Assembly: GCA_002010215.1 (NCBI GenBank)
Contig: MTMY01000047.1
Location: forward strand, 62,001-126,000
Length of the DNA: 64,000 nucleotides
Source: Archaeoglobus sp. JdFR-37
GTDB lineage: Archaea > Halobacteriota > Archaeoglobi > Archaeoglobales > Archaeoglobaceae
Direction of reading: 5' to 3'
In this document: positions 7,978 to 46,666 of the stretch, one piece after another
Layout of the letters: every line of letters starts with the position of its first letter
Position numbering within the stretch: position 1 is the first letter of the stretch
The notes under the pieces: generated by a model
The model's database searches: none
Told to the model about the DNA's origin: nothing
Seen by the model: only the letters and a program-made list of their open reading frames with translations
Program-made: the position numbers and the translations under genes

Positions 7978-8814
7978 TTAAACAAAAAGAATATCAAGCT
8001 TTGGTCTCTTCAAAACCCCCTTCTCTACAGCCATCTCAAACATCCGCTCTATAGCCTCAACAACGCTTTCTGGCATTTCATAGGTGTACTCGTTCACATA
8101 CATGGTGGCAAACTTTTTGGTCATCTCTTTGTCCATTCCTCTTGCAAATTTCATGGCATAATCCACAGCCTCATCCGGATTCTCGATAGCGTATGCAATA
8201 CTCTCTTTCAGAGCCACCAGAAAAGCTCTCTGAACCTCTTCAGGCAAATCTCTGCGGATGACATTGACACCAAGGGGAAGAGGCAAAGAAGTTTGCTCAT
8301 ACCACCATTCCCAGAGATCCAGAACCTTTGGAAGGCCGTGTTCAGCGTAGGTTAGCTGCCCCTCGTGAATCAGCAATCCGGCATCCACATCTCTCCTTTT
8401 CACTGCATTTATTATTGTGTCGAATCTCATCTCAACAGGGTGATAGTCATCTATAGCTAGCTTCAGCAGCAGATTTGCCGTGGTGTATTTTCCGGGAATT
8501 GCTATTTTACAGCCTTTAAGCCTTTCAAGTCCTTCAGACTCCTCCAAACTCACGTCACTCCTAGCAACAACTATTGGACCATAACCATCTCCTACCGAGG
8601 CACCAGCAGACAGGATTCGGTATCTCTCATGAAGATATGCGTAGGCATGGAGCGATAGGGCTGTAACATCAAGCTGCGCATCAAAAGCCATTTTGTTCAG
8701 GGTTTCAATATCTTCTATGAGGTGTTCAACTTCAAAATCCATCTTTATTTTCCTAGATACCATGGCATAAAACATGAAAGCATCATCAGCATCTGGTGTG
8801 TGGGCCACAATCAT
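7978..8814 (-). CDS. mqnD: 1,4-dihydroxy-6-naphthoate synthase (futalosine menaquinone pathway)
   Basis: AHTPDADDAFMFYA, IPGKYTTA, LIHEG and PLPLG motifs of the MqnA/MqnD family, MqnD type. Confidence 0.8.
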   Translation of the reverse strand: MIVAHTPDADDAFMFYAMVSRKIKMDFEVEHLIEDIETLNKMAFDAQLDVTALSLHAYAYLHERYRILSAGASVGDGYGPIVVARSDVSLEESEGLERLKGCKIAIPGKYTTANLLLKLAIDDYHPVEMRFDTIINAVKRRDVDAGLLIHEGQLTYAEHGLPKVLDLWEWWYEQTSLPLPLGVNVIRRDLPEEVQRAFLVALKESIAYAIENPDEAVDYAMKFARGMDKEMTKKFATMYVNEYTYEMPESVVEAIERMFEMAVEKGVLKRPKLDILFV

Positions 8815-8995
8815 AAGGGCAGGGCTGTAAAGTTAGTTTAAATATGCTTTGCTGTTAGAGGGCAAGGGTGACAACTCAGAAATGGGACGACTCTAAAACT
8901 CTAAACAACTCTAAACACAGAAGATGAAAAGTTGATCAAGCTAAATCAGTCAAGTTAAGTAATTAAAAGCATTAAGAGCAGTAATTAAACAAAAA

Positions 8996-9712
8996 TTAAA
9001 CAAATATATTGGCACAGCACTCCCTGAACTCCTTGTAGGCCTCAACCACGTCTTTTCCTTCCACAAAGGTCAAACTGTTTTCCTCAGCGTATCTGATTGC
9101 CTTAGCCTTTGGCAGTGCCTTTCCCGTTTCGGCATCAAGCATCTCGCAAATGGCAACAGCAGGAGCGATTCCAGCCATCTCTGCTATGGCTACGCTCAGC
9201 TCTGTCTGCCCGACTCTGGAATATGTTAGGTCAGTTGAAGCCTTAAGGACTGCAACGTGTCCCGGACTTCTGAATTCTGATGCAAAATCGAAGTCTCCGC
9301 CATTCAGAACTGAATCAACAGCTTCGCCAAGTTTTCGTATAGTTAGGGCCCTGTCAACATCGGTAATGCCAGTAAAGGTGCTTCGATGGTTGACCCAGAG
9401 TGAGAAGGACGAGCGGGAATCGTAGCGTATGTCAAATCTGGAGAGGTCTGCCAGCAGAGGGAATTTTTGAGATGCCTCCTGTAAAACATCATGCATGAAA
9501 GGCAGGCCAAGCTTGTCAGCTGCCACAGGATGCAGAGCCACGCATATAAGCCCGCCACCATCCATTCGCATCATTGTCACATCTCTAGGCTCAACGCTGA
9601 AGGCAGGGATGGCTATATCGGTTTCGCCCTCCCTATCATCAAAATCGTATATGAGAATTGCTTCACCTTTCCTGAAAGCCTCAAGAGCATCTTCAATCAC
9701 AGTATTGGTCAC
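8996..9712 (-). CDS. ribB: 3,4-dihydroxy-2-butanone-4-phosphate synthase
   Basis: DREGETD, GGLICV, TGITDVDR, FRSPGH, RVGQTE and CEM motifs. Confidence 0.95.
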   Translation of the reverse strand: MTNTVIEDALEAFRKGEAILIYDFDDREGETDIAIPAFSVEPRDVTMMRMDGGGLICVALHPVAADKLGLPFMHDVLQEASQKFPLLADLSRFDIRYDSRSSFSLWVNHRSTFTGITDVDRALTIRKLGEAVDSVLNGGDFDFASEFRSPGHVAVLKASTDLTYSRVGQTELSVAIAEMAGIAPAVAICEMLDAETGKALPKAKAIRYAEENSLTFVEGKDVVEAYKEFRECCANIFV

Positions 9713-10356
9713 AGAATCACCTCCACTTCTACAACATCTCCGTCCTTCAGATTCAGCCTATCCCTAAGCTTCACAGGAGCTATGACTTCCAGCACATCGG
9801 CCTGATAATGGCTCCTGACTGGCAAAACAACAGCTCCTTCAACCCCATCTATTCTGCATCTAAAGGCTTTAACATCTCCAAAGGTCCTGTTTTCAGAAAC
9901 AAACCCAGAGATAATTATACCCTCCTCTTCATCCAGCATTTTTCTGAAATACATCTGCTCTTTTGGAATTTTCAGGTTGAGAGTTCCAGGATATGGATCA
10001 AAACCCAGCTTCTCCACAAACTGCTTTCTGTAACCCTCCAAGGATACATAATAGCCTCCTTCTCCCATCCCGCTCATAACTTTCCCTGATATCACAATTC
10101 TCTCCTCACCCTCAAATATTCGCTTGTAGTCGAGGTACTCCCTATAAAGGGTGTCCCTGCCTTTTCCAGTTATCACAACATACTGGCCATCTTTGTCAAG
10201 CATTCTTTCGATTAATTCGGCATCTTCAAGCTCCTTCAACTTTCTTGCGGCTGTTTGTAGGCTTTGACCAATCTCAGCAGCCAAATCTTTGGAACTGAGC
10301 TTTATAACCTTCTTTATTGCGCCAAGCTGTGCAAGCCTCTTGAGTACCTCAAGCAT
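9709..10356 (-). CDS. ribK: CTP-dependent riboflavin kinase with N-terminal wHTH (RbkR-type bifunctional regulator)
   Basis: wHTH (LAAEIGQSLQTAARKL) plus SGMGEG..Y, PYPGTLN and EVIAPVKLR. Start placed at ATG 10356, downstream of the TATA-like box. Confidence 0.92.
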   Translation of the reverse strand: MLEVLKRLAQLGAIKKVIKLSSKDLAAEIGQSLQTAARKLKELEDAELIERMLDKDGQYVVITGKGRDTLYREYLDYKRIFEGEERIVISGKVMSGMGEGGYYVSLEGYRKQFVEKLGFDPYPGTLNLKIPKEQMYFRKMLDEEEGIIISGFVSENRTFGDVKAFRCRIDGVEGAVVLPVRSHYQADVLEVIAPVKLRDRLNLKDGDVVEVEVIL

Positions 10357-25079: not shown

Positions 25080-25667
25080 CTAAATTCTTTTTCTGTTTTT
25101 CCTGAATATATCTAGCAAGCCCACGCCAGCCAATGCGAATACAACCATTGTCACTTCAAAGCCCGGTGATTTCTTCTCTGTAACTATTTTCTCTGGAGTT
25201 TCTGTCTTTTTCGGAGTTACTCTTGGTGTTGGTGTTTCTGTTACCCCTGAACCAGTTCCTGCGAAACTCCTAATATATTCTAGTACCTCAGATATTTCTT
25301 TATCAGACAAATCTGAAAATGCGGGCATGTTCCCCTTTCCATTCTTTATTGCATCTATCAGCTCTTCATCCGTCTCCTTTGCCCAGAATTCCTTGTTCGA
25401 AAAGTCAACACCATTCATTTTCTGGCCATCTCCCTTCTCTCCGTGGCACATGAGGCACTTCTTCTCGTATATCTCTTTTCCGGAGTCTTCGGAATCCTCA
25501 GAATCTGCGGAAGCCACAGGGATCACAGGAATCGCTATTATGGTAGCTAACACTACAAGCAAAATCAGAATTGCAGACACTCTTAGTATTCGTCTGACGT
25601 TTCCATCTATATTTACATCTATACTTACATTTTCCTTACTTCTCATCTCATCACTTTTGCTTTCCAT
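25080..25667 (-). CDS. Monohaem class I cytochrome c with PGF-CTERM archaeosortase signal
   Basis: Signal peptide, CLMCH, axial GNMP, Thr/Pro-rich linker, then SPGF + TM + basic tail. Confidence 0.88.
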   Translation of the reverse strand: MESKSDEMRSKENVSIDVNIDGNVRRILRVSAILILLVVLATIIAIPVIPVASADSEDSEDSGKEIYEKKCLMCHGEKGDGQKMNGVDFSNKEFWAKETDEELIDAIKNGKGNMPAFSDLSDKEISEVLEYIRSFAGTGSGVTETPTPRVTPKKTETPEKIVTEKKSPGFEVTMVVFALAGVGLLDIFRKNRKRI

Positions 25668-25671
25668 ACTA

Positions 25672-26553
25672 TCACCCCATAAAGACTGAGAGGAGTAGAT
25701 ACATCAGAAATACTGCCCCAAGATGGGGGCTGCTCAGCCTGAAAAGCCTATAATGGTTGGTTCGTACATTAAACAGCAATTTTACCAGCGGGTAATTTAG
25801 AAGTCCGATCATGAAGAGACTCAACCATATTGGCTCCAGCATCAAGAAGGCTGCAAAGCTGTCAGCGATATAGAGGGCCGTGAACACCAGTATCATCCTC
25901 AAAACTTTCTCTTTGTCACTGACGACTGGAAGCATCGGAACTCCTGCTTTTTTGTAATCTTCTTTGTAGAAGAGGGCAAGGCTCCAGATGTGTACGGGTG
26001 TCCAGAATATTATGAGCAGGGCCAGAATCAGGGGTTGAAAGGCTATCAACTCACCGGTCATTGCAGAGTGGGCCCCCAGAATCGGTGCAGCCCCTCCAGG
26101 AGAAGCGATCAGTATGTTGTAGGAAGTCTGAGTCTTCAGTCGGTAGTTGTAGGAAATAACAAAAACTGCCCCAATTATGCCCCAGAAGAGCACGTAGATG
26201 TTTATTGTGGCTGCAAGAATCAGACCGGAGAGCAGCAGCACCACTCCGAAAATCAACGCCTCCCTAGGGCTGACCTCTCCTTTTGGCAGAGGTCTGCTTC
26301 TTGTTCTACTCATTATGGAATCCATTTCTCTGTCTAAATAGCATGTTATGGTGTTTGTACCCATGCAGCTCAGCAATACAGATAGCGTTAGCACTCCAAG
26401 GGCCTTCGTGTTCTCTGCATCTCCACTATAAACAGAGAAAGCCTCAACTACAGCCGTCAGCAATAGCAGAGCGGACAGTTTGGGTTTTGTCAGGATGACA
26501 AAGCTCCTCGCTCTTGAAAAAAATTTAAAGAAATTATTCCAGATAGTGGCCAT
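25672..26553 (-). CDS. cyoE: Protoheme IX farnesyltransferase (heme O synthase, CyoE/CtaB family)
   Basis: LTKPK, DREMD..M.RT..RPLP.G, FWTPVHIWSLA and DYKKAGVPMLP motifs. Confidence 0.92.
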   Translation of the reverse strand: MATIWNNFFKFFSRARSFVILTKPKLSALLLLTAVVEAFSVYSGDAENTKALGVLTLSVLLSCMGTNTITCYLDREMDSIMSRTRSRPLPKGEVSPREALIFGVVLLLSGLILAATINIYVLFWGIIGAVFVISYNYRLKTQTSYNILIASPGGAAPILGAHSAMTGELIAFQPLILALLIIFWTPVHIWSLALFYKEDYKKAGVPMLPVVSDKEKVLRMILVFTALYIADSFAAFLMLEPIWLSLFMIGLLNYPLVKLLFNVRTNHYRLFRLSSPHLGAVFLMYLLLSVFMG

Positions 26554-28168
26554 ACTCGATCCCTCTGGCAAGCTTGCTGGCCATGAGGACTGCTATAATG
26601 CCGAGACCGATGTAAGCAACGGCTGACAGAGAGTATGGAATCCAGATGTTCCCGTACTGAAGGACGCTGCTGGACGAAAAGCTCCAGAGTCCAGTGGTTC
26701 CGATGAGGGCAAAGAATACGGCTAGCACAACCAAGAATGGAAAGCCCTCGAAGGTTGTAAACCAGCTCCTCTTTACCTCTGGAGGCTGATAGCTTTCGTT
26801 CTCCACCGGGAATAGCAGATGTCTCAGCATTGATGATGCAAGGTAGATATAGCCCAAGAACACCATGCCCCCTCCAATCACAATCCCAGGAACGAAGGGG
26901 AATCGGGCTTCCAGCACTTTCTGCCAGGGTTCCGCAAGAATCCAGTAGTGGTAAATCTGGACTGTTCCAGCAAGGCCGAAAGATGTAGCCAGCACTATCT
27001 GTCCCACAAACATGAGCCAGAAGGCCTTCTTACCCCATGAGACGAAGGTTCTGTCCACAGGCTTCCCTGTCAAGTCCGGGATTGCAAGATACAGCAGGGC
27101 TATTGCTCCCATTGCAAAGGCCATCATGCATTCGTGTCCGTGGCTGGGTGTAACCCAGGTTCCATGCTCCCACCAGTTAGTCCAGGGCCAGGTCTGGATT
27201 AAACCCAGAAGTGAAACGCCGACGAATCCGAATATCAGAATGCCAACCATGAAGTAGAGACTTGGAATGTTGGGGAAGGGCTGCTCGAGTTCTTTGGCAA
27301 TTTTCAGAGATTCGAGGGCCATAAGAGCTAGCGGAACAATCTCAAGAACGCTGATGACACCACCAAGCATTATCCAGAATGTGGGTGTTCCTATCCAGAA
27401 ATAGTGGTGCCCTTGTCCAACTATACCAGAAGTTGCAGCCAATATCACGTCGTAGAAAATATACTTATCAACCACCTTCCTGACCCTCGGATCAGGGATT
27501 ATCAGCATCAGAACTAGACCTATTGCCCCCGCATATGCGATTTCCAAGGCTCCTTCCACCCAGTAGTGAACTGTCCACCATCTGAAGTACTCACTGGTAA
27601 CCACGCTCTTGAAGAACAGGTTGCCTGGGATGTAGAGTAAGAAAGTGCCAGCTGCTCCAATCACAAGTGCCCACAGGGCTAGAGGCCACTCTCTCGGGCT
27701 GGGCAGGGTTTTTTGAACCACCAATGCAACAATCATGAAGCCTATGAAAATCAAGATGTCCCACAGCCTTCCTGCCTCAACATACTCCTTGCCTTCAACC
27801 AGCATTGGCTGATTTGCAACCCATATATTGTTCCCAGTCTGCATAACCGGCAGGGTTGCGAATATGCCTATGGTCACTAAAACCAACACCACTGCCAGCA
27901 ACTTAACCAGTCCCTGCCCCCATAAGTCTCTCTTAGACAGCATGGGTGTCATGTAGAACACAGCTGCAAAGGTAGCAGAGAAAAGCCAGAGTATCAGTGC
28001 ATTCAAGTGATAGGCTCTTATTAGGTTGAAATTTGCTATGCCCGATAACAGATCTGGGTTAATGTAGTAGAAGGCTAGAAATCCTCCGGCAATTAACTGA
28101 ACCAGAAACAATACCAGCGCTACAACAGCAAAGGGCAGTGCAAGCATTTGGGATCTGTACTCAGGCAT
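26534..28168 (-). CDS. norB: Nitric oxide reductase catalytic subunit (cNOR NorB)
   Basis: Heme-copper oxidase fold with H ligands: RAYHLN, HYWVEGALE (FeB Glu), GQGHHYFWIG, SVLE, SHGH; also GKEYVE loop. No qNOR N-terminal domain. Confidence 0.9.
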   Translation of the reverse strand: MPEYRSQMLALPFAVVALVLFLVQLIAGGFLAFYYINPDLLSGIANFNLIRAYHLNALILWLFSATFAAVFYMTPMLSKRDLWGQGLVKLLAVVLVLVTIGIFATLPVMQTGNNIWVANQPMLVEGKEYVEAGRLWDILIFIGFMIVALVVQKTLPSPREWPLALWALVIGAAGTFLLYIPGNLFFKSVVTSEYFRWWTVHYWVEGALEIAYAGAIGLVLMLIIPDPRVRKVVDKYIFYDVILAATSGIVGQGHHYFWIGTPTFWIMLGGVISVLEIVPLALMALESLKIAKELEQPFPNIPSLYFMVGILIFGFVGVSLLGLIQTWPWTNWWEHGTWVTPSHGHECMMAFAMGAIALLYLAIPDLTGKPVDRTFVSWGKKAFWLMFVGQIVLATSFGLAGTVQIYHYWILAEPWQKVLEARFPFVPGIVIGGGMVFLGYIYLASSMLRHLLFPVENESYQPPEVKRSWFTTFEGFPFLVVLAVFFALIGTTGLWSFSSSSVLQYGNIWIPYSLSAVAYIGLGIIAVLMASKLARGIEYGHYLE

Positions 28169-28172
28169 ACTA

Positions 28173-28844
28173 TCACCCCCTCGCATACCAATAAAACATT
28201 CCAAAGACCAGAAACACCGTAAACACCACTGTCAGCACCCAGTAAACGAGCCATGCGTCAAAGCTTTCGTACCACCTCACTGCATTCTTATCGAAGCTGG
28301 AGGCAAAGCTATAGTCATTGTCTTTCATAGGTGGCCAGTTGTTGGTGTTCAGATCTTTCAGATAGAGCATCCAAGCAGTCAGGGCATCGATTTCTTCATC
28401 TGACAAGTGGAAGGGCATGAACTTGGTTCCAGCGTAGGCAGAGAGCAGGGATTTGATATTGTCTCCATCTCCAGCCTTTCTGGCAACGTATGTCAGTTCG
28501 GGAGCATAGTATGCTCCATTACCCACGATAGTGTGGCAGCCCATGCAGTTGTAGTCGATGGCCACCTTCCACCCCTCGAGAGCAGTTGAACCTCTATAGG
28601 TTATAACCTCTGGGTCTGGGTTTCTCCCAGGATCAATGGACAGTGGCGTCAGTATCACAATCAGTAGAATGGCGAAGGCCACCATGAACTTTCCAAGCCT
28701 CTCGAAGGGTATTTCCTCCGCTTCAGCCCTCTTTGCCTTTCTGGCATAATGGACGTACAGAATCAATGCCGCTGCTATTCCCGCTATAAAGGCACTGAAA
28801 AAGAATATTTCATAGGCGTACGTCATGGTGTAATTTTTATTCAT
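28173..28844 (-). CDS. norC: Nitric oxide reductase cytochrome c subunit NorC
   Basis: NCMGCHTIVGNGAYYAPELT, axial FMP and NTNNWPP, all NorC-type motifs; directly upstream of norB. Confidence 0.9.
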   Translation of the reverse strand: MNKNYTMTYAYEIFFFSAFIAGIAAALILYVHYARKAKRAEAEEIPFERLGKFMVAFAILLIVILTPLSIDPGRNPDPEVITYRGSTALEGWKVAIDYNCMGCHTIVGNGAYYAPELTYVARKAGDGDNIKSLLSAYAGTKFMPFHLSDEEIDALTAWMLYLKDLNTNNWPPMKDNDYSFASSFDKNAVRWYESFDAWLVYWVLTVVFTVFLVFGMFYWYARG

Positions 28845-28860
28845 AATTAATTTCTTAATT

Positions 28861-28934
28861 TTCCCTAAAATTTAAGGGTATAATCCTTTTAAATATCAGT
28901 TTTCGGTCACAATCTTCCCTAAAATTTACGGGAA
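28861..28934. promoter_or_regulatory. Two copies of a 20-bp imperfect palindrome in the divergent norC/hemerythrin promoter
   Basis: TTCCCTAAAATTTAAGGGTA (28861-28880) and TTCCCTAAAATTTACGGGAA (28915-28934), 18/20 identical. Confidence 0.65.
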
Positions 28935-28966
28935 ATGGTTGATATACTTAACAGTGTTAAATTTGA

Positions 28967-29467
28967 ATGGTGTCGGGTATGGTTGAGCTTGACCCAATTG
29001 CAGAATTTAGAGAAGATCATAGAAAGGTGAGAGATGGATTGCTTGGGCTTGCAGATGCCCTTGAATCCAAGAATATTGGAAAAGCGGGAGAAATCCTTGG
29101 AGAGTTGAACAATTTGCTTGGGCCTCACTTCAGATTTGAAGAAGAAGCTTTGTACCCAGCCCTCAGGAGATTTTTAGGTGAATATGTGGATGAACTTTTG
29201 AAAGAGCATGATGGGGCGATAGAAGCAGCAAAAGAGCTTGCAAGATTGATCGGAAAAGGTGAAATTGGAGATGATGAGGCAAAGGAGGCTGCCAGCAAAA
29301 CAAGAGCACTTTTGGTGCATGTTTCTAACTGTGATGGATTAGCTATACTGGCTGAGAGGCTTGATGCTGCTGAAATTCAGAATCTTGGCAGAAAATTTGC
29401 TGAAATTAGAGATGAAGGAATCCCATTACTCGACTGGGCTGAGAAAATCAGGAAAAAGGGATCTTGA
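28967..29467 (+). CDS. Hemerythrin-like (HHE) di-iron protein
   Basis: EDH, HFRFEEEALYP and KEH motifs, plus a final HVSNCD. Confidence 0.85.
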   Translation: MVSGMVELDPIAEFREDHRKVRDGLLGLADALESKNIGKAGEILGELNNLLGPHFRFEEEALYPALRRFLGEYVDELLKEHDGAIEAAKELARLIGKGEIGDDEAKEAASKTRALLVHVSNCDGLAILAERLDAAEIQNLGRKFAEIRDEGIPLLDWAEKIRKKGS

Positions 29468-29889
29468 TGAGCAACAATCTTGCCATAATTTTTCATAGCG
29501 GAACATATGATCGGGTCAATCACGGATTGTCCTTAGCTTTAGCCTCTCTGGCCATGGGAAATAAGGTGAGGATGTTCTTTACCCACCTTTCTCTGAAATA
29601 CCTGATCAAAAACGAGTCAGAATCAGATTTTATGGCCCTTCTTACCTTCAGTGAAGATGATGAGTATTACAAAACCAGATTCGAGAACTTTCTAAGGGAA
29701 GGCCATATCCACAGCATTCAGGAGTTACTAAAGGAGTGCAAAACCCTGAAAGGGGAGATTTACGTTTGTGCAGCGTCGATGGCCCTTCTAAACATCACAA
29801 GGGATGAGCTTATTCCTGAAGTAGACAAGACAGCTGGCATAACCACCTTCCTGTCAGAGGTTAACGGTTTTCAGATTTTGTTTATTTGA
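29464..29889 (+). CDS. DsrE/DsrF-like (DsrE2/peroxiredoxin-like) protein
   Basis: AIIFHSG.YDR, V.MFFT, YVCAASM and AGITTFL...LFI motifs. Overlaps the hemerythrin stop. Confidence 0.8.
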   Translation: MMSNNLAIIFHSGTYDRVNHGLSLALASLAMGNKVRMFFTHLSLKYLIKNESESDFMALLTFSEDDEYYKTRFENFLREGHIHSIQELLKECKTLKGEIYVCAASMALLNITRDELIPEVDKTAGITTFLSEVNGFQILFI

Positions 29890-30068: not shown

Positions 30069-31397
30069 TCAATGTATCTCGCTTCCGTATCTCTTTTTCA
30101 GCATGAAGGATATTGTTATGGATATCAGTGCTAGAGCCACGTAAACAACAAAACCTCTGGCGTATCCTAGCTCTCCGAACATATCCACGAAAACTCCTAG
30201 GATTGGTGGAACTACGAATCCTCCGAAGGCGCCCAGACCACCGACCCATCCGCTTGCACCTCCAACAGCCTCTGGCACATATTTGGCTACGAGCTTGAAC
30301 ACTGCAGCGTTGGCTATGCCCATTCCAGCACCGATGAAAATTTCTCCGATTAAAGCGGGACCGAAGCTTGTGGAGAACATTAGTATTGCGGCTCCAATTA
30401 GAACTAGGGAGAAGCTCATTATTGCTGTTCTCTCTCCACCCATTCTGTCACTGAGATGCCCACCGTAAACTCTGATAAAGGATGCCAGCAATGAAAAGCC
30501 GACGCCACCAAGAATGCCGGCAGTCCTTATGTCAAAGCCGTGAAAAAGTCGCCAATAAGTGGGGAACCAGGTGGTCAGAGCCAGGAAACCACCGAAGGAT
30601 GTGAAGTAAAGAGCAACAAGAGCCCAGGTTCTGCTAATCCTTGCAGATATCTTGAGGGCATCGATGAGAGTCCCTGAAGGGAACAACTCTTGGCCAAGTT
30701 GCTTTGCAACACTGACTGCCTCATCTCTCGGCACACCCTTCTTTCTTAGCTGGAAATAGTAGGCATCATGGGCAATTATGGCGTAGATAATTGTTCCTGC
30801 CAGTAAAAACAGGAACCATGCAGCATAAGCGCCTGCAAGCCCTAAAGCAGCCAGTGCAAAGGGAATTATCAGAGTAAAGAAGCCTGGAGCAGTGTTCCCA
30901 AGTCCGGCATAGGTGCCCAAAGCCCAACCCTGTCTTCTCTGGGGGAACCAGTAGGAGGTCTGAGGGATGCCAACTGAGAATGTGGCAACTCCACACCCGC
31001 TCAGAGCCCCGAACAGAAGGATGAATGGATACATCTCCATTGTGAGATTATCTGGGTAGTATGCAAATAGTATTGCTGTAAGTCCTGCCATACCTATTAC
31101 AGACAGCGATAGCAGCGTTAGTAGAGGTTTCTTGCCACCAACCTTGTCAACCCATGCACCGAATGGAATCCTGAGTAAGGAACCGGTCAGCTGGGGTATT
31201 GCCACAAGCAATCCCAGCATGGCTCCAGAAAGCCCCATCACATCCTTGAACTCCTTGGCGGTTGGCCCGTAGAGGGCGACAGCAGCAAAGCCGACGAAGA
31301 ATCCAAGAGTTGCAGCTATCAGTCCTTCAGTTGGATTTCCTTTTAGCCCATATTTATTTTTCAGCTCCTCAACACTAATTTCCATCATTTTCACCAC
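30069..31397 (-). CDS. narK: Nitrate/nitrite MFS transporter
   Basis: GSLLRIPFG, G.ALG..AGLGN, FGGFLAL and GWVGGLGAFGGF nitrate signatures. Confidence 0.92.
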   Translation of the reverse strand: MVKMMEISVEELKNKYGLKGNPTEGLIAATLGFFVGFAAVALYGPTAKEFKDVMGLSGAMLGLLVAIPQLTGSLLRIPFGAWVDKVGGKKPLLTLLSLSVIGMAGLTAILFAYYPDNLTMEMYPFILLFGALSGCGVATFSVGIPQTSYWFPQRRQGWALGTYAGLGNTAPGFFTLIIPFALAALGLAGAYAAWFLFLLAGTIIYAIIAHDAYYFQLRKKGVPRDEAVSVAKQLGQELFPSGTLIDALKISARISRTWALVALYFTSFGGFLALTTWFPTYWRLFHGFDIRTAGILGGVGFSLLASFIRVYGGHLSDRMGGERTAIMSFSLVLIGAAILMFSTSFGPALIGEIFIGAGMGIANAAVFKLVAKYVPEAVGGASGWVGGLGAFGGFVVPPILGVFVDMFGELGYARGFVVYVALALISITISFMLKKRYGSEIH

Positions 31398-31485
31398 CTC
31401 TTTACAACTCCTTCACATTCCTGCATTCCTTCCATCATTCCTCTTCATCATTCCCTCCATATTCCAATATCCAGGTCTCACGATC

Positions 31486-32166
31486 TCACTTCCCCAGTTG
31501 CTTCTCTCTCCTTACCCACCTGTAAAGAATCGGCGGGTCTTTCAAGTAATCCAGTGGAAGGAACAGAAAGTGTACCAGTTTTGTGAAGGGCAGTACTGCC
31601 AGAATCAGAAAGGCTCCAGCCACATGTAATTTGAACACCAGTGGGAGTCCGGAAACAAAACCTATTTGAGGGTTCAGAGTCAGCAGCGAGTACAGCCAGG
31701 GAACAGCTGTATGGAGGTACCATTCCATCCCCCACCTGACAAAAAGCCCCATGTAAACTCCAGTTGCTGCCTGAAGAAGTATGAGCAAGAGCAGTACCCA
31801 GTCCGCATAGCTGGTAACAGCTCTGACGACGCCTGAAAATCTCCGCACGAGCAGTATAATACTTCCAAAAAGAGTCATCAGACCGAGACCTAAAGCTATG
31901 CTTTCCAGAGCGATGAGAGCTGATAAATCGGACAGCAAGGACTGGATAGTTGAGGGGAAAAGAAAACCTATAATGTGGCCGGCAAGAATCAGTACCACAC
32001 CATAGTGCCAGGGAATACTACCCCAGTACAGACTCCTCCTCTCCAAAAACTGTGTGGAAAATGTACTCCAGTCCAGCCTGTTGGAGAAGTAGCGGTATGG
32101 TGTCACGAAGATTGCGAGAGCTATAGCAAAATACGGCAGTACAGCAAAAATCAGAACATCGAGCAT
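31486..32166 (-). CDS. narI: Respiratory nitrate reductase gamma subunit (cytochrome b)
   Basis: STQFLE, PWHYG....GH and KLH...PFTKLVH: four heme b His ligands. Confidence 0.95.
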   Translation of the reverse strand: MLDVLIFAVLPYFAIALAIFVTPYRYFSNRLDWSTFSTQFLERRSLYWGSIPWHYGVVLILAGHIIGFLFPSTIQSLLSDLSALIALESIALGLGLMTLFGSIILLVRRFSGVVRAVTSYADWVLLLLILLQAATGVYMGLFVRWGMEWYLHTAVPWLYSLLTLNPQIGFVSGLPLVFKLHVAGAFLILAVLPFTKLVHFLFLPLDYLKDPPILYRWVRREKQLGK

Positions 32167-32765
32167 TTTATCACCCCCTTACCTAGGTTTCTCCCATTTT
32201 TTGGATTTTCACCACCACCTGAACCAACATCTGCATCAGAAATGCATAAAATATATGAGAGGAGAATAGGCTGCCTGTAGGGAGTATCCTTCTTCTCCAC
32301 TTTTCTCCGCATCTTATTTAGCCCATCTATTACGAAATTAACAATAAACTCTTTTCTATCCTCTCTTCCAAGGTAGGATAGAAAATCCATGATAACGGAA
32401 ATGTGGTCGGGCAACTCATTTTTGGGCACTTCAAAGCCGTGAATTCTGTAGATTTCCTTAAGCTTCACCATGTATTCTCCTTTTTTATAACTTTCACCAT
32501 ATAAATAATGTGAGATGTATGGTGGGCAGAGGGGAAAGATATCAAAGGTCCTGACGTATTCCTCCTGCACTTCCCACAGCTCAGAGGTATTCAGAAATTC
32601 TGCGAACTCGTCTAGCAGTTGTTCAGTATAGATTTCGTTTATAAGATATGACAGCCTCTCTACAGACTTTTTCAGCTCTGAAATATCTCTGGGATCTCTG
32701 AGATATTGAAAAAGAGTCGAGAGAAGTCTGTAGCACTCAGCCCTTGAATCTGCCGACTCCCTCAT
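32151..32765 (-). CDS. narJ: Nitrate reductase Mo-cofactor chaperone
   Basis: YVRTFD and ELPDHI motifs; position between narH and narI. Confidence 0.9.
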   Translation of the reverse strand: MRESADSRAECYRLLSTLFQYLRDPRDISELKKSVERLSYLINEIYTEQLLDEFAEFLNTSELWEVQEEYVRTFDIFPLCPPYISHYLYGESYKKGEYMVKLKEIYRIHGFEVPKNELPDHISVIMDFLSYLGREDRKEFIVNFVIDGLNKMRRKVEKKDTPYRQPILLSYILCISDADVGSGGGENPKNGRNLGKGVIKCSMF

Positions 32766-34228
32766 AATCCTCCCCTCGGCTTGGCAATTATACCAAACCC
32801 TCTACCACCCCTCCTTTCATCAGATGGGGCAACATCTAGGTACTCCCTGTGCAAGGACGGTATTGTGTAGCGTTCATGGTAACTTGCGACGGTGAAAAGG
32901 CGATAAAGTCTCTCTGTTGCGCCAGTATCTAGGGATGCTTTCCTCAAAATCTGTTCATCTGGACTCTCTCCCAAATTTTTCGCCCTCATATATGCTCGCA
33001 ACGCAATCAGCTTCTGAAGGGCGTCAACCACCACGTCTTCATTTCCAGCTGAAAACAGCTTGGATAGGTATCTGACGGGAACTCTCAGGTGCTCCATATC
33101 TGGAATGGCTTCATGGTCTTCCACATCATAGGCTATTCTCTGGGTCGCCAGTACAGGTGAGAGTGGTGGTACATAGAATGTCATGGGCATTGTTCTGAAT
33201 TCTGGATGGAGAGGCAGAGCAACTTCGAACTCTCTAATCAGAGCATAGGCTGGAGATTTGATTGCAGCATCAAGCCAGCTGTCCGGTACCCCATTCTCTT
33301 TTGCAGCTCTTCTTATCATTTCATCCTTTGGATCTAGAATTATTCTCCTCTGGGCTTCGACAAGCTCCTCGTCTCGGACTTTCAAAGCCACATCCAGTCT
33401 GTCAGCATCATAGAGGATCACTCCCACATATCGAATTCTTCCAACGCAACTATGGGCGCATGCGTTCGCCTGGGCAGTTTCAGTCCGAGGATAGCAAAAA
33501 ATGCATTTCTCCGACTTGCCAGTGTTCCAGTTATAGTAAACCTTCTTGTATGGACAGGCAGATACACAAAATCGCCATCCTCTGCATGTGTTCTGGTCAA
33601 CAAGCACGATTCCGTCTTCTCCACGCTTGTAGATGGCGCGCTGTGGGCATGCTGCAACACATGCCGGATTTAGGCAGTGATTGCAGATTCTGGGAAGGTA
33701 GAACATGAACAGCTTTCCGAAACTGCTTATGATTCTCCTTTCATCCAAATTAACATCGTTTTCTGCATAGAGGGGGGAGCCGCTCAGATCATCGTCCCAG
33801 TTGGGGCCGAATTCTATGTCTATTTTCTCTCCTGAGATGAGAGACACCGGTTCTGCAACAGGCTGGTCATCTGCCTCAGGTGCATTGTAGAGGTTAGCAT
33901 AATCGTATGTCCAGGGATGATAGTAATCCTCTAGCTTTGGCATGTAAGGCTGGTAGAATATGTTGAGGAGGGTTGAGAACTTACCAAAGGCTCTGAGCTT
34001 GACGTAATTCCCCTTAAGTACCCATCCGCCTTTGTACTTTCTCTGATCCTCCCAGAATTTCGGATACCCGGCTCCAGGCTTTGTCTCAACATTGTTCCAC
34101 CACATGTATTCCGCTCCCCTCCTGTCACTCCAGATGTTCTTGCAAGCTATGCTGCAAGTGTGACAGCCAAGGCATTTGTCCAGATTGAAGACCATAACAA
34201 GCTGAGCTCTCACATCCATGGCTATCAC
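32762..34228 (-). CDS. narH: Respiratory nitrate reductase beta subunit
   Basis: NLDKCLGCHTCSIACK, PRICNHCLNPACVAACP, CRGWRFCVSACPY and EKCIFCYPR Fe-S motifs. Confidence 0.97.
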   Translation of the reverse strand: MIAMDVRAQLVMVFNLDKCLGCHTCSIACKNIWSDRRGAEYMWWNNVETKPGAGYPKFWEDQRKYKGGWVLKGNYVKLRAFGKFSTLLNIFYQPYMPKLEDYYHPWTYDYANLYNAPEADDQPVAEPVSLISGEKIDIEFGPNWDDDLSGSPLYAENDVNLDERRIISSFGKLFMFYLPRICNHCLNPACVAACPQRAIYKRGEDGIVLVDQNTCRGWRFCVSACPYKKVYYNWNTGKSEKCIFCYPRTETAQANACAHSCVGRIRYVGVILYDADRLDVALKVRDEELVEAQRRIILDPKDEMIRRAAKENGVPDSWLDAAIKSPAYALIREFEVALPLHPEFRTMPMTFYVPPLSPVLATQRIAYDVEDHEAIPDMEHLRVPVRYLSKLFSAGNEDVVVDALQKLIALRAYMRAKNLGESPDEQILRKASLDTGATERLYRLFTVASYHERYTIPSLHREYLDVAPSDERRGGRGFGIIAKPRGGL

Positions 34229-37200
34229 CTCCTCAGCTTCTTTACAACAACGTAGGTGTCCCTGTTCACACCTGTCGGCCCCCAGTAGTTGAAGTAGTAG
34301 CTAAACTGGGCATAGCCTCCAACCATCAGAATTGGCTTTAGGCGGGTCCTAGTAACGCTGTTGTGTACTCCGCCTCTCCTCCCAGTTTTCTTGGACTTAG
34401 GTATGTAGAGTGTCCTTTCTGGAGCATGGTACATTATGGCCATTCCTCTGGGGACTCTGGCAGACACAACGGCTCTACAGACAATTACACCGTTGCTGTT
34501 ATATACTTCAACCCAGTCGTTATCGTTTATTCCGGCAGTTCTGGCATCCTCATCGTTTATCCAGACCACCTGACCGCCTCTGGATATTGTAAGCATTCTC
34601 AGATTGTCGTAATAAGTGGAATGAATGCTCCACTTCCCATGAGGTGTTATGAAATTCAGAATAAGGCCTTCATCACCCTCTATCTCGTCCAGCATCCTTG
34701 GACTTATTTTAGGCTTGAATGTTGGCAGCATTTCATAGAAAGCGAGATAATAGGGATGATCTAAGTAGAGCTCCTGTCTTCCGCTAAGCGTTCTCCAAGG
34801 TATTTCATATTCCACATTCAGGGTATATGGTGCATAAGTTCTTCCGTCGTTTATGTTCCCACTCCAAACTGGGCTGGTTATAATGCGTTTTGGCTGAGCC
34901 TTAACGTCTTCGAACGTTATCCTATAGCTCCGATATGGCTCCACTATCTGGCTTAAAGGCTTTCCTATTTTCTTTTCCAGGTTCTTGAATCCTCTGTAGC
35001 TTATCTCACCATTTGTTTCGGGAGCGAAGGTAAGAATGATGTTAGCCACGGTCACATCTTCCTCGAGAGAGACGTATCTGTTGCCATTCCATTCAATCGT
35101 TGGAAATTCATTGAGAATTTCCTCGTAAATATCGCTGGCATCCCAACTAACGCCGTGGGCACCTAGAGTTTTTATTCCTGGCCCGAGAGTGATGAAGCGT
35201 TTATAGAGATTGGCATAATCCCTCTCCACGATTATAAGTTTGGGCATAGTTTTGCCTGGTATGGCCTCACATTGACCGAGTTTCCAGTCCTTAACGTCAC
35301 TCTGTGTTAGTTCTTCCGGTGTGTCGTGTAGCAGGGGTGCCATTATTACATCTTTGACAGGCTTCGGGAAGTGTTTCGATGCCAGTTCGCTGAACTTCTT
35401 TGCTATAAGCTTGAAAATTTCCCAGTCAGATTTTGCTTCCCAAGCAGGTGATGTAGCCCCTCCCAAGCAATTTATGAACGTGTGGAGGTCCGTTGACTGA
35501 ATATCGTTCTTCTCATACCAGTGAGCTGCTGGCAGGACGATATCTGAATAGACGGCAGTTGAATCCATCCTGAAGTTAAGATCAACTATGAGGTCAAGCT
35601 TTCCTTCTGGCGCATCTCTCCATACTACTTCGCTGACAAAGTCCTTTGCAACTTCTCTCGCCATTACGTTGCTGTTTGGAGCTCCAACAAAATGCTTCAG
35701 GAAGAACTCATGACCTTTCGGGCTTGAACCTATGGCATTTCCTCTCCAGATGAACCAGATTCTTGGCCAGTTCTCTTCGGCATCAGGGTCTTCGATAGCA
35801 AACTTCAACTTACCTTCCTTCAATTTGTCCACAATCCATTTTCTCACTTCATCGTCACTCTTTGCTCCCTCTTTCTGGGCTTCCTCTACCAATTTTAAGG
35901 GGTTCTCGTTGAATTGTGGATAGAAGGGCAACCATCCTAGGCGAACTGCCTTGACGTTGTAATCTATTGTGTGCTCAGGCAACCCATCTCCATCAACGGG
36001 TTCAATGTAACTGCACCTGTCGTACCTCCACTGGTCGGTGTGGACATAGTAGAAACTCGGGGAGTTCTGGAGGCGTGGTGGTTTCACCCAGTCCTGAGCA
36101 AAAGCAACGACAGCCCACGAAGCAACTGGAGCCACCTTCTCCTGACCAACGTAATGGGCTAACCCCCCACCATTTTTGCCTACACTTCCTGTAAGTATCA
36201 GAGCTGTTATAACAGCCCTGTAATTCAGGTCGTTGTGGAACCAGTGATTCAGACCTGGGCCGATGATAGCTAAGTTTCGCCCCTCAGTCTTCTCTCCATT
36301 CTCAGCCCATTCTCTGGCTATTTTGATTACAGTCCTTCTGCCAACTTTAGTATACTTCTCTTGCCATGCTGGTGTGAAGGGTTTATTATCGTCGTAGCTT
36401 TCAGGATAGTCCCCTGGCAGGCCCCGAGAAATGCCGAGATGTGCTGCCAGTAAATCGAAGACTGTTGTAACAACTACTTCCCCTTCCTTAGTTTTTACAA
36501 CCTTTGCAGGAACGCCTCGTATACTCTCACCGTATTCGTCATAATAAAATCTCACCATTACTGTTTCTTCACCCATTAGACTGAGTTTTACGTCTATCTC
36601 TTCTCCATCTACTGCGTCCTTCATTTCCAGATTCCATTTACCTTCAATACTGCTCCATCTGAAGCCGATGCTTCCGTAGGGTATTCTGACCTCTCCATTG
36701 TCGTCTATTACACAGAGAATCCATTCAGCATTCTCAAGTACTTCACCCTTCTCAATTTCAGATGCCCTCAGAAAGCGATCCGGGACGTAAACATCTCCAT
36801 CTTTTCTAAGTTTTACTAGGAACGGCATATCTGTGTATTTCTTGGCGTATTCTAGGAAGTATGGAGTCTCTTTCTCGAAATAAAACTCTTTCATAATGAC
36901 ATGGTTGGCAGCCATCCAGAAGGCAGCATCATGTCCCTGTTCAACTGGTACCCATACGTCTGCATACTTGCTGACTTGGCTGTAGTCTGGAGAGAACACA
37001 ACAACTTTTGCACCTCTATATCTGGCTTCAGAAAGATAGTGGGTGTCAGGCGTCCTGGTCATATTCAGGTTGGAGCCCATTATGGCTATGAATCCGGCAT
37101 TGTACCAGTCAGCTGACTCGTTAACGTCGGTCTGCTCACCCCATATTTGCGGTGAAGCTGGTGGTAAGTCGCAGTACCAGTCATAAAAGCTTAGGCAGAC

Positions 37201-37788
37201 TCCTCCAAGAAGCTGGAGAAATCGGGCTCCAGATGCATAGCTCACCATCGACATGGCAGGGATGGGTGTAAAACCGATTACTCTGTCAGGTCCGTATCTC
37301 TTAATGGTATAGAGGGTTGATGCGGCTATTATCTCTACTGCTTCATCCCAGTCAGCCCTTCTGAATCCACCCATTCCCCTCTTTTTTACATACTTGTTTC
37401 TGAGCTCAGGATTTTCAACTATGCTCTTCCAAGCTTCAACAGGGTCACCATATTTTGCCTTTGCCTCCCTCCAAAGGTCCAAGAGAGCTCCCCTTATGTA
37501 GGGAAACTTTGGACGGAGTGGGCTGTAAAGGTACCATGATGCGCTAATTCCTCTTTGGCACCCTCTTGGCTCATAATTTGGTATTCCGGGGCTGAAACTG
37601 GGGTAATCTGTAGCTTGAAGCTCCCAAGTTACGATACCATCCTTTACGTAAATCCACCAGCTGCAGCTTCCGGTGCAGTTTGCTCCGTGAGTACTCCTAA
37701 CAACTTTGTCATACTGCCACCTGTTGCGGTAGAATTCCTCCCAGCTCCTTAATTCTGGAGAAAACACATCCTTTATACGTTCTGACAT
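34225..37788 (-). CDS. narG: Respiratory nitrate reductase alpha subunit (no Tat signal)
   Basis: RSTHGANCTGSC, EPRGCQRG, FYDWYCDLP (Mo-ligand Asp) and TPHGKWSIHS motifs. Confidence 0.97.
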   Translation of the reverse strand: MSERIKDVFSPELRSWEEFYRNRWQYDKVVRSTHGANCTGSCSWWIYVKDGIVTWELQATDYPSFSPGIPNYEPRGCQRGISASWYLYSPLRPKFPYIRGALLDLWREAKAKYGDPVEAWKSIVENPELRNKYVKKRGMGGFRRADWDEAVEIIAASTLYTIKRYGPDRVIGFTPIPAMSMVSYASGARFLQLLGGVCLSFYDWYCDLPPASPQIWGEQTDVNESADWYNAGFIAIMGSNLNMTRTPDTHYLSEARYRGAKVVVFSPDYSQVSKYADVWVPVEQGHDAAFWMAANHVIMKEFYFEKETPYFLEYAKKYTDMPFLVKLRKDGDVYVPDRFLRASEIEKGEVLENAEWILCVIDDNGEVRIPYGSIGFRWSSIEGKWNLEMKDAVDGEEIDVKLSLMGEETVMVRFYYDEYGESIRGVPAKVVKTKEGEVVVTTVFDLLAAHLGISRGLPGDYPESYDDNKPFTPAWQEKYTKVGRRTVIKIAREWAENGEKTEGRNLAIIGPGLNHWFHNDLNYRAVITALILTGSVGKNGGGLAHYVGQEKVAPVASWAVVAFAQDWVKPPRLQNSPSFYYVHTDQWRYDRCSYIEPVDGDGLPEHTIDYNVKAVRLGWLPFYPQFNENPLKLVEEAQKEGAKSDDEVRKWIVDKLKEGKLKFAIEDPDAEENWPRIWFIWRGNAIGSSPKGHEFFLKHFVGAPNSNVMAREVAKDFVSEVVWRDAPEGKLDLIVDLNFRMDSTAVYSDIVLPAAHWYEKNDIQSTDLHTFINCLGGATSPAWEAKSDWEIFKLIAKKFSELASKHFPKPVKDVIMAPLLHDTPEELTQSDVKDWKLGQCEAIPGKTMPKLIIVERDYANLYKRFITLGPGIKTLGAHGVSWDASDIYEEILNEFPTIEWNGNRYVSLEEDVTVANIILTFAPETNGEISYRGFKNLEKKIGKPLSQIVEPYRSYRITFEDVKAQPKRIITSPVWSGNINDGRTYAPYTLNVEYEIPWRTLSGRQELYLDHPYYLAFYEMLPTFKPKISPRMLDEIEGDEGLILNFITPHGKWSIHSTYYDNLRMLTISRGGQVVWINDEDARTAGINDNDWVEVYNSNGVIVCRAVVSARVPRGMAIMYHAPERTLYIPKSKKTGRRGGVHNSVTRTRLKPILMVGGYAQFSYYFNYWGPTGVNRDTYVVVKKLRR

Positions 37789-38585
37789 TATTTCACCCTC
37801 CCGTAATATATAGCTGCGACAATCATGGCCAGCAGGAAAAGTCCGAGACCTGACATTGGATAGATTGTCGTACTTCTTTCTTTGGATTCAGCAGCTTCCT
37901 TGAAAAATTCGATTAATGCAGCAATTTCATCGTCTGTCAGCCTCTTTCCGGCATAAATATCTTTCATAACCGGAAACTGGAGACTTTTAAGTGCACCGTA
38001 AACTCCCTTATCCCCCAATCTTGTGTAAAGGTCACTGAGGTCTGTTGCAAGACTCCCACCACTAATTCCAGCACTGTTAACAGAGTGGCATGAGATGCAC
38101 GGCGCTCCACCATTTACGAATCTCTTTTTTCCCACAAACAGAGCTTTTCCAAGTTCAGGATCAGATGCAGAAGATGGTACTGGCTCAGGTGTCTTTTCAA
38201 CTGGTGTCTCTTGAATCTCCTGTACTGTCTGAGTTTCTTCAGGTCTTGGTTCAGTTGCGGAGAACTGTTTTAGGTACTCTATTATCTTGACAGCTTCGTC
38301 TTCTGTCACACCCAGATTTGGCATCTGAAATCCGTATTTGGAAATTAACTCCATCTGTATCGGATCATTCTCGGCTGCAAGTTTATCGGGCTCCACTATT
38401 ACTCTTATGAGCCATTCTGTATCTCTTCTGTCGGTTACACCCAGTAAATCAGGCCCTGCAAGGTCACCACCACCGATGGTATGGCATCCTGCACACTTGG
38501 CAGAATACAACTCCTCGCCACTTTGAGCATATACGATATCTAACGTAAATATCAAAAATACAAAAAATATCAGAGACCTCTTCAC
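37788..38585 (-). CDS. Membrane-anchored dihaem cytochrome c (NarC-like)
   Basis: CAGCH...QMP and CISCH...VM; signal peptide and C-terminal TM. GTG start at 38585 with GGTGA RBS; stop overlaps the narG ATG. Confidence 0.85.
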   Translation of the reverse strand: MKRSLIFFVFLIFTLDIVYAQSGEELYSAKCAGCHTIGGGDLAGPDLLGVTDRRDTEWLIRVIVEPDKLAAENDPIQMELISKYGFQMPNLGVTEDEAVKIIEYLKQFSATEPRPEETQTVQEIQETPVEKTPEPVPSSASDPELGKALFVGKKRFVNGGAPCISCHSVNSAGISGGSLATDLSDLYTRLGDKGVYGALKSLQFPVMKDIYAGKRLTDDEIAALIEFFKEAAESKERSTTIYPMSGLGLFLLAMIVAAIYYGRVK

Positions 38586-38801
38586 ATTATCACCCCAGAC
38601 CACCACCAAGTTTATTCCCACACTATAGATTTCCACCATCGAGAGCTTTTTTCTTCGGGTAAAACAGATCTGCTGTCGTCAACTAAAAACAGGCGTTCCA
38701 TGACTCTCCACTGGTCTATGGATAGTCTGTGACACATATTTTCCACAATCATAAATGATGGTTGGAGAGTATATAAAGTTTTTCCCGGAGAATTTCGTAA
38801 A

Positions 38802-45634: not shown

Positions 45635-46666
45635 TTACTCCAGCAAACAGACGCCTTCGGGCCTTTTTACTCTAACACCCAGTGTTTCATGGAGTCTAAA
45701 AATGTGTTCGCTACCCTCCTGTCCGATGTAGTCCACTTCAGTGTCAGCTCCCAACACAACATCCAAGTTTTGGAGGGGGTGTGGCAAGGACAATGGCTGC
45801 ATTTACAGCAGGAGTGACAACAATATCCATTACTTCCTTAAGTATCGAAATCTCAAGACGACTGCCATCCACCACTCCTAGAAGCTTAGAATAAAGCTCT
45901 GGAGATACTAAACATGTGTACGGGCCAGCAAGTCCCTTGGAGGAGATTTCGGATATGGTTTTCATCAGATTCTTTAAACCGTCTCCTGGCTTTTCCCAAT
46001 CATCAAGTTTCACCTTCAATCCAGCTTGCTCTTGGAGCTGGATGGAGATAAACCTGTCTTCAGCCATTGCAAGGTCTTCAGCAGCAGCGGCAACAACGCT
46101 GAGATCAACATCTTTACCTTCTTTCAGTGCTTCAAAATCAACTTCGCTCAGCCTGAACTCAACTGACAGCTCCTCAAGGGGCTTAAATTCACTTTGAACT
46201 GTTTTAAACATACCTTCTGCTGGCAGCCTGTCAACTCTAAAGACTTGGGCTGTGGAGCCCATATGGGTTACAGGTAGCTTTTTCCTTAAGGTTCTTGAGG
46301 CAGATGCAAACAGTCTAGCTTTCTCTTCGATTCCAAATCCATTGCCATCGCTTTCCAAGTTCTAAGAGTCAAGTTTCGCTTCATATCCTGTAAGCTCAGA
46401 CACTTCTTGGAAACCTTTCTTAAGCTCGGCAATCTGTTCTTCATCCAGCATTTCGAGAACAGCTAGGAACTCTCCAACATGGATCTTCTCTTCCCTTGCT
46501 ATATCCAGAAACACATTTCTGACCTTTTTATCCTCAATTCTTCTGGCCTGTTGAAGGTAGAGATTTATATCATCCAGTTCCGCAATCACAGCTAATCTAA
46601 TAGCTTCTACAACCTCTTCGTTTTGTCCAGTTTCTCTTTCAAAATATCAACAGGGTTTTTAGACAT
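45635..46666 (-). pseudogene. Ferritin-like protein (Flp)-family 1 encapsulin fusion, disrupted by two frameshifts and one in-frame TAG
   Basis: Reconstructed as MSKNPVDILKEKLD/NEEVVEAIRLAVIAELDDINLY...DIAREEKIHVGEF...EAKLDS*NLES...KKLPVT...LDDWEKP...AGPY/QNLDVVLGAD...ETLGVRVKRPEGVCLLE. Colinear with the Pyrococcus furiosus Flp-encapsulin architecture. Confidence 0.85.

Follow-up and report, generated by a model that had tools for sequence, protein, structure and literature searches.

The RIC proteins (E. coli YtfE, S. aureus ScdA) are cytoplasmic proteins in which a di-iron-type PF01814 domain is accompanied by a nearby cysteine thiol, with ties both to nitrite and nitric oxide (NO) and to iron-sulfur (Fe-S) cluster assembly through IscU and IscS. 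They have been argued to be iron donors which contact IscU and IscS (PMC9268430). In a window of 64,000 nt from Archaeoglobus sp. JdFR-37 (contig MTMY01000047.1, positions 62,001 to 126,000), which is the whole stretch analysed here, a hemerythrin-like gene and a DsrE2-type gene overlap between nitric oxide reductase (Nor) and nitrate reductase (Nar) genes. This pair resembles the RIC proteins in its PF01814 domain, its predicted cytoplasmic location, its nearby cysteine thiol and its ties to nitrite and NO and to Fe-S assembly, and in its mode of action it appears closest to a RIC protein whose thiol partner is supplied in trans. We propose that it is an accessory module for the supply of iron and persulfide to Fe-S centres, or for their repair, under nitrate respiration, a reading on which our confidence is evenly poised. 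The two genes are:

28979..29467, + strand, hemerythrin-like (HHE) protein, 162 aa, start matching homologues
29467..29889, + strand, DsrE2-type protein, 140 aa, predicted persulfide/thiol carrier (PF13686, invariant Cys101)

The hemerythrin-like protein

The hemerythrin matches PF01814 with 56.3 bits (gathering cut-off 25.3), and both the structural model and fold searches indicate a four-helix bundle. An upstream ATG at 28967 would give a protein of 166 aa. An initial annotation of this DNA had noted a cysteine in the motif HVSNCD where the glutamate of HxxxE is usual, and this is borne out: in a profile-profile alignment (probability 91.8, E 7.5e-7) HVSNCD falls on the HIxKED of ordinary hemerythrin domains, so that Cys118 (codon 29330-29332) occupies the position of the second bridging Glu. 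The predicted metal-site residues are H14, H50, E54, Y59, H77, H114 and C118, with Y59 found in 116/135 covering rows of a deep search and in 72/72 rows of alignment A2. Proteins with the signature HxxxC[D/E]G make up a widespread and apparently uncharacterised subfamily of hemerythrins with a fixed DsrE2 partner.

The pair's hemerythrin differs from RIC proteins in that the ligand set of four His and two bridging Glu is broken by Cys118, and in having an invariant Tyr and a separate DsrE2 partner; Hcp, moreover, is mostly not found in carriers of the pair. No ScdA_N match was found among Pfam domains of the hemerythrin, which is a single 162-aa domain. RIC proteins have a left-handed, helix-swapped bundle; fold searches with the model of our protein listed other hemerythrin-like chains first. 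Membership of the RIC family was rejected on the missing ScdA_N and the Cys in place of Glu. The mycobacterial hemerythrin-like protein (HLP; Mka HLP/Rv2633c, PDB 6Q09) has a fifth helix and a Tyr ligand placed five positions beyond its first Glu; both have counterparts here, the Tyr being matched by spacing only and the helix lying at 130-146 of the model. However, the Glu109 position of HLP is Cys118 in our protein, on which membership was rejected; identity is 20%, the hosts are different and there is the DsrE2 partner. O2-carrying (bacterio)hemerythrins have five His including an HxxxH pair; here Leu73 stands at the HxxxH position and the model NF033749 scored 16.7 against a cut-off of 84 bits. 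Two further proteins close to it, NMB1532 (2P0N) and PF0695 (3CAX), are 20-24% identical to the hemerythrin.

The DsrE2-type partner

The partner matches PF13686 with 58.1 bits (cut-off 25); a TTG at 29464 is an alternative start. The cysteine which the initial annotation had pointed out in YVCAASM is present as Cys101 (codon 29767-29769), the sole conserved Cys and invariant in 74/74 covering rows. The monomer model matches SSO1126 (PDB 2QS7; TM 0.84, E 1.2e-11), and thus the profile, the DsrE fold and the single conserved Cys of PF13686 DsrE2-like proteins were all found. DsrE proteins carry sulfur on a single conserved Cys (bioRxiv 10.1101/2023.12.18.572138), and we predict that this one is a persulfide or thiol carrier. 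It resembles the sulfur carriers DsrE2B (SSO1126) and DsrE3 in fold and in its single Cys, but it differs from them in its family-specific HSGxYDR start, its hemerythrin partner and the lack of linkage to sHdr or rDsr sulfur oxidation genes.

Neither protein of the pair has a signal-like N-terminus by hydropathy, and NarG is without a twin-arginine motif and accompanied by NarI, in agreement with the suggestion that the pair shares the cytoplasm with the site of nitrite production.

We confirmed 238 loci with related hemerythrins and based neighbourhood counts on the best 80 of these. A DsrE2 gene lies downstream on the same strand in 77/80 loci, within 60 nt in 68; of the remaining three, two have no DsrE2 gene and one stops at a contig edge. 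The DsrE2 gene was also present in 5/5 further core-clade loci, and a DsrE gene in 2/2 loci of another related clade. In the literature covered, outside which most subscription papers fell, we found no description of a hemerythrin and DsrE pair or of a Cys-ligated hemerythrin-like diiron site, and nothing on an Archaeoglobales Fe-S regulon motif, an anammox hemerythrin or a link between DUF2249, hemerythrin and nitrosative stress which matched the pair. If Cys118 does bind metal, the bridging position would be taken by a Cys, a type of coordination new to the hemerythrin fold.

Co-occurrence with N-oxide enzymes

The closest related loci come from records titled Geoglobus, Ferroglobus and Archaeoglobaceae, and the studied genome (G000; 1.97 Mb, 94.5% complete) was therefore grouped with the Archaeoglobi. 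Among 96 Archaeoglobi genomes the hemerythrin was found in nine (one copy, in G042, being frameshifted) and narG in 10: eight have both, one the pair only, two nar only and 85 neither. A second sample comprised 401 genomes from one bacterial class and was built around a carrier picked for its top narG score. Here narG was present in 6/7 core-clade carriers compared with 10/394 other genomes, and in 4/5 carriers after dropping two which had already been seen. It should be noted that kin are not independent in these counts and that Fisher values overstate the association. This co-occurrence in two separate classes, together with the palindrome, described below, which the pair shares with nar and nor promoters, supports a link of the pair to N-oxide respiration, and the Cys-hemerythrin/DsrE2 cassette accompanies nitrate respiration in archaea and bacteria alike.

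The initial annotation had put forward the pair as the missing respiratory nitrite reductase (Nir), making NO to feed Nor, and had proposed phylogenetic profiling against nar, nor and Nir. The part of this profile which concerns nar stood, as above; the parts concerning Nor and Nir did not. Fifty of the 80 loci, taken by a fixed numbering rule, represent 48 genomes, mostly incomplete metagenome-assembled genomes, four of which are Archaeoglobi overlapping the class set. These sampled carriers have narG in 21 cases and Nor in nine, while NirS was found in five (one split) and NirK in six (five over the cut-off and one split, with two more just below it), so that 10/48 have NirS or NirK alongside the pair and only 2/48 have nar and nor without Nir. 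Nor occurs in three of the 96 Archaeoglobi, all of them carriers, and with the query used was not found in 6/9 Archaeoglobi carriers or in 39/48 sampled carriers. The pair therefore follows Nar and not Nor or the absence of Nir.

In favour of a missing Nir, the NirK, NirS and NrfA profiles gave no match over cut-off in G000, Ferroglobus placidus reportedly produces NO while lacking both types of Nir (PMC3236036), every Nor-bearing genome among the Archaeoglobi has the pair, and the pair precedes or follows an octaheme gene in 11 anammox loci. However, the hemerythrin lacks the second Glu and the ScdA_N domain of YtfE, itself a slow enzyme (kcat ~1-63 per minute), and Nar itself reduces nitrite to NO (both PMC9052748). 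In addition, 3/3 Nor-bearing Archaeoglobi have a secreted IhOCC-like octaheme cytochrome as well as the pair. We consider it very improbable that the pair fills this step.

The octaheme of G000 (G000:C7:22217-23716; L095:5218-6717, − strand) has eight hemes, a signal peptide and a C-terminal anchor, and its best solved relative is IhOCC (4QO5, E 1e-55). IhOCC is described as an octaheme nitrite reductase, and the related HAOr as making NO (PMC9250108). IhOCC-like octahemes were found in 20/96 Archaeoglobi, including all three with Nor but also 12 without narG, and for this reason the protein is a rival candidate for the missing Nir of Nor-bearing Archaeoglobi and not the answer. G000 also has a siroheme NirA/Sir-like gene, which heads a sulfur-assimilation operon; no dsrAB-like paralogue of it was seen in this genome. 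How NO is formed in Ferroglobus-type archaea, which have no NirK or NirS, is a question of long standing; our results lower the chances of the pair and name the IhOCC-like octaheme as a rival candidate which can be assayed.

In the anammox records (L017:8126-9790, L039:8118-9791 and nine more loci), the octaheme beside the pair is a paralogue nearer to IhOCC than to HAO, HDH or HAOr.

Predicted regulons

Palindromes had been noted between norC and the pair. These are confirmed and belong to two types:

28861..28880, unstranded, box 1, norC-proximal copy, palindrome of CCCTAA-N4-TTAGGG type, predicted operator of an N-oxide respiration regulon
28915..28934, unstranded, box 1, hemerythrin-proximal copy, conserved among other Archaeoglobi at ~55-75 nt before the gene
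28948..28960, unstranded, box 2, palindrome TTAACASTGTTAA, predicted operator of a regulon for the supply of iron and sulfur
38782..38801, unstranded, weak box 1-like site upstream of narC, matrix score 8.0 against a 95th percentile of 7.5 over 1442 upstream regions

Apart from the two box 1 copies at 28861 and 28915, the 1.97-Mb genome has no match to this palindrome with ≤ 1 mismatch. A matrix trained on eight hemerythrin-promoter sites only was applied to ten held-out promoters, namely one norC unlinked to the pair and nine narC. They scored 8.0-20.5, with 10/10 over the 95th percentile (7.5) and 5/10 over the 99th (11.5), as set by the 1442 upstream regions of one genome (G000), spurious open reading frames (ORFs) included.

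Box 2, whose pattern was defined from hemerythrin promoters, lies 31 nt before the hemerythrin start, and the genome has no other exact copy of it. Ten relatives contain 73 sites with ≤ 1 mismatch, compared with 34 for a reversed control. Six of the 73 precede the pair, six tusA(-dsrE)-iscS, seven siroheme reductase (sir) and/or tauE, four DUF2249-DUF438-hemerythrin, three the FTR1 iron permease and five multiheme cytochromes or a small helix-turn-helix (HTH) gene (one doubtful). Leaving the pair aside, the tusA-iscS, sir/tauE, DUF2249-hemerythrin and FTR1 classes account for 20/67 sites, spread over 9/10 genomes. In G000 box 2 is also found upstream of sir-aprAB-sat, tauE, SepCysS, ftr1 and the DUF2249 hemerythrin, and with 2 mismatches before tusA-dsrE-iscS-iscU; none was found before narC or the octaheme gene. 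G000 was where the sir/tauE and DUF2249 classes came to light, before they were found in relatives; for the tusA-iscS and ftr1 classes the order was the reverse. The DUF2249-DUF438-hemerythrin gene of G000 (L102, G000:C45:445-1425, − strand) is preceded by both boxes, arranged as they are before the pair. The pair is thus predicted, from these motifs, to belong to two regulons, through box 1 with nar and nor and through box 2 with sulfur assimilation, tusA-iscS, the iron permease and a second hemerythrin. The two predicted archaeal operators are testable and would link the supply of iron and sulfur to nitrate respiration.

These regulons bear on two further explanations. In the first, the di-ferrous protein would be a YtfE-like detoxifying nitrite reductase slowly making NO from cytoplasmic nitrite, with Cys101 of DsrE2 acting in trans for the Cys30/Cys31 relay of ScdA_N, and Nor or a flavodiiron protein clearing the NO. 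The tight co-occurrence with a cytoplasm-facing Nar and the box 1 which the pair shares with nar and nor are consistent with this, as are reports that YtfE and ScdA make NO from nitrite with Cys30/31 relaying electrons from some reductants (PMC9052748; PMC12412097) and the finding, in 10/10 relatives tested, of a flavodiiron protein able to remove NO. However, YtfE has a second bridging Glu where our protein has Cys, Hcp, the proposed partner of YtfE, was found in 6/52 carriers and in 0/8 other Archaeoglobi carriers, and box 2 and the linkage to iscS are left unexplained; we regard this explanation as unlikely. In the second, the site would bind or convert NO like the mycobacterial HLP, or the two Cys would shuttle NO off S-nitrosated thiols. 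This seems quite improbable, since the mycobacterial enzyme needs H2O2 for turnover (PMC8913304) and the record titles of most carriers point to anaerobes, and the sulfur-supply regulon is again unexplained. Both of these activities could coexist with the supply and repair role which we favour, as they do in YtfE.

Several other features of the box 2 regulon were observed. The assimilatory sulfur operon of G000 (L105:156-7110, − strand, and 8053-10049, + strand; G000:C10) reads sir-tusA-aprA-aprB-sat-tusA-dsrE-thrC-like-SAMP, with tauE and SepCysS divergent, all of them with box 2 sites. An HTH protein of 99 aa, which has cysteines at both its N- and its C-terminal end (L105:11028-11327, + strand; L168), has box 2 at its start in both G000 and G042 and is a candidate regulator of this regulon. 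The FTR1 promoter (upstream of G000:C8:20229, − strand) has beside box 2 a second palindrome, which resembles a DtxR-type iron box. In G036 and G037, apparent CRISPR arrays or cas genes are repeatedly accompanied by a variant of box 2 (L132, L153-L155, L162, L164, L165, L094:15580).

Gene neighbourhoods

The run hemerythrin-DsrE2-DUF2249-(iscU)-iscS was found in 11/80 loci, whose records bear the titles Omnitrophota, Planctomycetia and Deltaproteobacteria, and a gene for IscS, IscU, NifU_C or Rrf2 lies within 6.5 kb in 16/80. Within the same distance the 80 loci contained DUF488 (n = 33), further hemerythrins (n = 25), DUF2249 (n = 19), IscS (n = 13), octaheme (n = 11, anammox records), DUF2024 (n = 8), NifU_C (n = 7), YgbA (n = 5), Crp/Fnr (n = 5), IscU (n = 4), Rrf2 (n = 4) and Nor (n = 3).

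It is also conceivable that the pair gives general protection against oxygen or reactive sulfur and that its tie to nar reflects only a shared redox-transition habitat. No informative neighbour beyond DUF488 was found in 36/80 loci and no N-oxide enzyme in 10/48 sampled carriers; five of these ten have iscS directly behind the pair. Against this explanation, which we think extremely doubtful, stand the box 1 which the pair shares with nar and nor promoters and the fact that the pair adjoins nar genes in separate lineages (the window, L001, L003, L065 and L197).

The Thermus DrpA/DrpB proteins are likewise encoded by a small two-gene unit by a nar operon, and DUF2249 genes are frequent neighbours of our pair. 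Unlike the pair, DrpA and DrpB are DUF2249 proteins and not hemerythrin or DsrE (PMC6282519); with no PF10006 match on either protein of the pair, membership was rejected.

Proposed function

Supply or repair of iron sites, which the initial annotation had given as its alternative, is the better-supported reading in view of the regulons, the iscS runs and the link to narG, and the module is the simplest reading to cover linkage, profiles, boxes and neighbourhoods together; its chemical steps are inferred. Cytoplasmic nitrite and NO from Nar would damage Fe-S and other iron sites, and Nar synthesis would raise the demand for clusters. The regulator of box 1 would turn the pair on together with nar and nor, and that of box 2 would do so together with the genes of sulfur assimilation, the cysteine desulfurase and those of iron uptake. 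DsrE2 would get sulfur from an IscS/TusA relay and hold it as a persulfide on Cys101. The hemerythrin would hold iron at a site with one carboxylate bridge fewer, where Cys118 replaces the bridging Glu, and would yield this iron, or accept sulfur at Cys118, for delivery to IscU or damaged clusters.

A number of observations weigh against this reading. The curated sulfur-carrier DsrE2 model NF047629 scored the partner far under its cut-off (30.1 against 210 bits), and Cys118 is a putative metal ligand, as predicted from the alignment. A sister clade with HVSDCDG lacks the DsrE gene in 5/5 loci, which means that a Cys hemerythrin can stand alone. No Fe-S assembly gene was found nearby in 64/80 loci, and the 11 loci with iscS may be one transferred cassette. 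As to box 2, 42/73 sites precede none of the reference genes, it is absent upstream of the pair in G036 and L005, and the tusA and ftr1 classes and a relaxed consensus were picked after the matches had been seen; the relaxed consensus gave no genome-wide excess in G000 (20 sites compared with 30 for the reversed control). Finally, the copy in G042 is frameshifted even though that genome has nar.

A bolder version, which we put forward tentatively and rate as somewhat unlikely, is that a hemerythrin fold with a Cys-ligated or sulfide-bridged di-iron centre, loaded with sulfur by a dedicated DsrE persulfide carrier, forms a minimal apparatus of a new kind in which Fe-S units are pre-assembled or repaired. 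In Archaeoglobi it would be controlled jointly by N-oxides and by iron and sulfur, and it would have spread among anammox and other anaerobic nitrate respirers.

Gene layout of the window

The genes surrounding the pair are:

28173..28844, − strand, norC-like cytochrome c subunit, divergent from the pair (profile match)
26534..28204, − strand, norB-like heme-copper oxidase family subunit (PF00115; closest matches 86-87% in two relatives)
25080..26571, − strand, two genes downstream of norB, one heme O synthase-like and one for a monoheme cytochrome c
30069..38639, − strand, narC(diheme)-narG-narH-narJ-narI-narK operon of cytoplasm-facing type (TIGR01580, TIGR01660 and TIGR00684 over cut-off)
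30069..31397, − strand, narK

As described in the initial annotation, the hemerythrin and DsrE-like ORFs are both present and overlap on the + strand between norC and narK, both on the − strand, with a gap of 134 nt to the divergent norC. The narI profile scored 104.8 against a cut-off of 105.55. The placement of the pair between nor and nar is peculiar to G000; in the closed relative G036 the pair, nar and nor are found at three distant places. In a same-genus relative (L180, G054:C2:38000-54599) narK directly adjoins a ribosomal gene and the cytochrome-cyoE-norBC-hemerythrin-DsrE2 block is absent, which indicates that all of it was acquired or lost together. The heme O synthase-like gene after norB (window 25672-26571, − strand) is also found in two relatives and is unusual for a NorBC-type enzyme; a modified heme O occurs in an archaeal Nor. 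Elsewhere in the window (45744-46589, − strand) there is a gene for an encapsulin (Linocin M18) shell protein of 204 aa, preceded by a 75-aa ORF which we take to resemble a ferritin-like cargo, and the two are possibly a split fusion.
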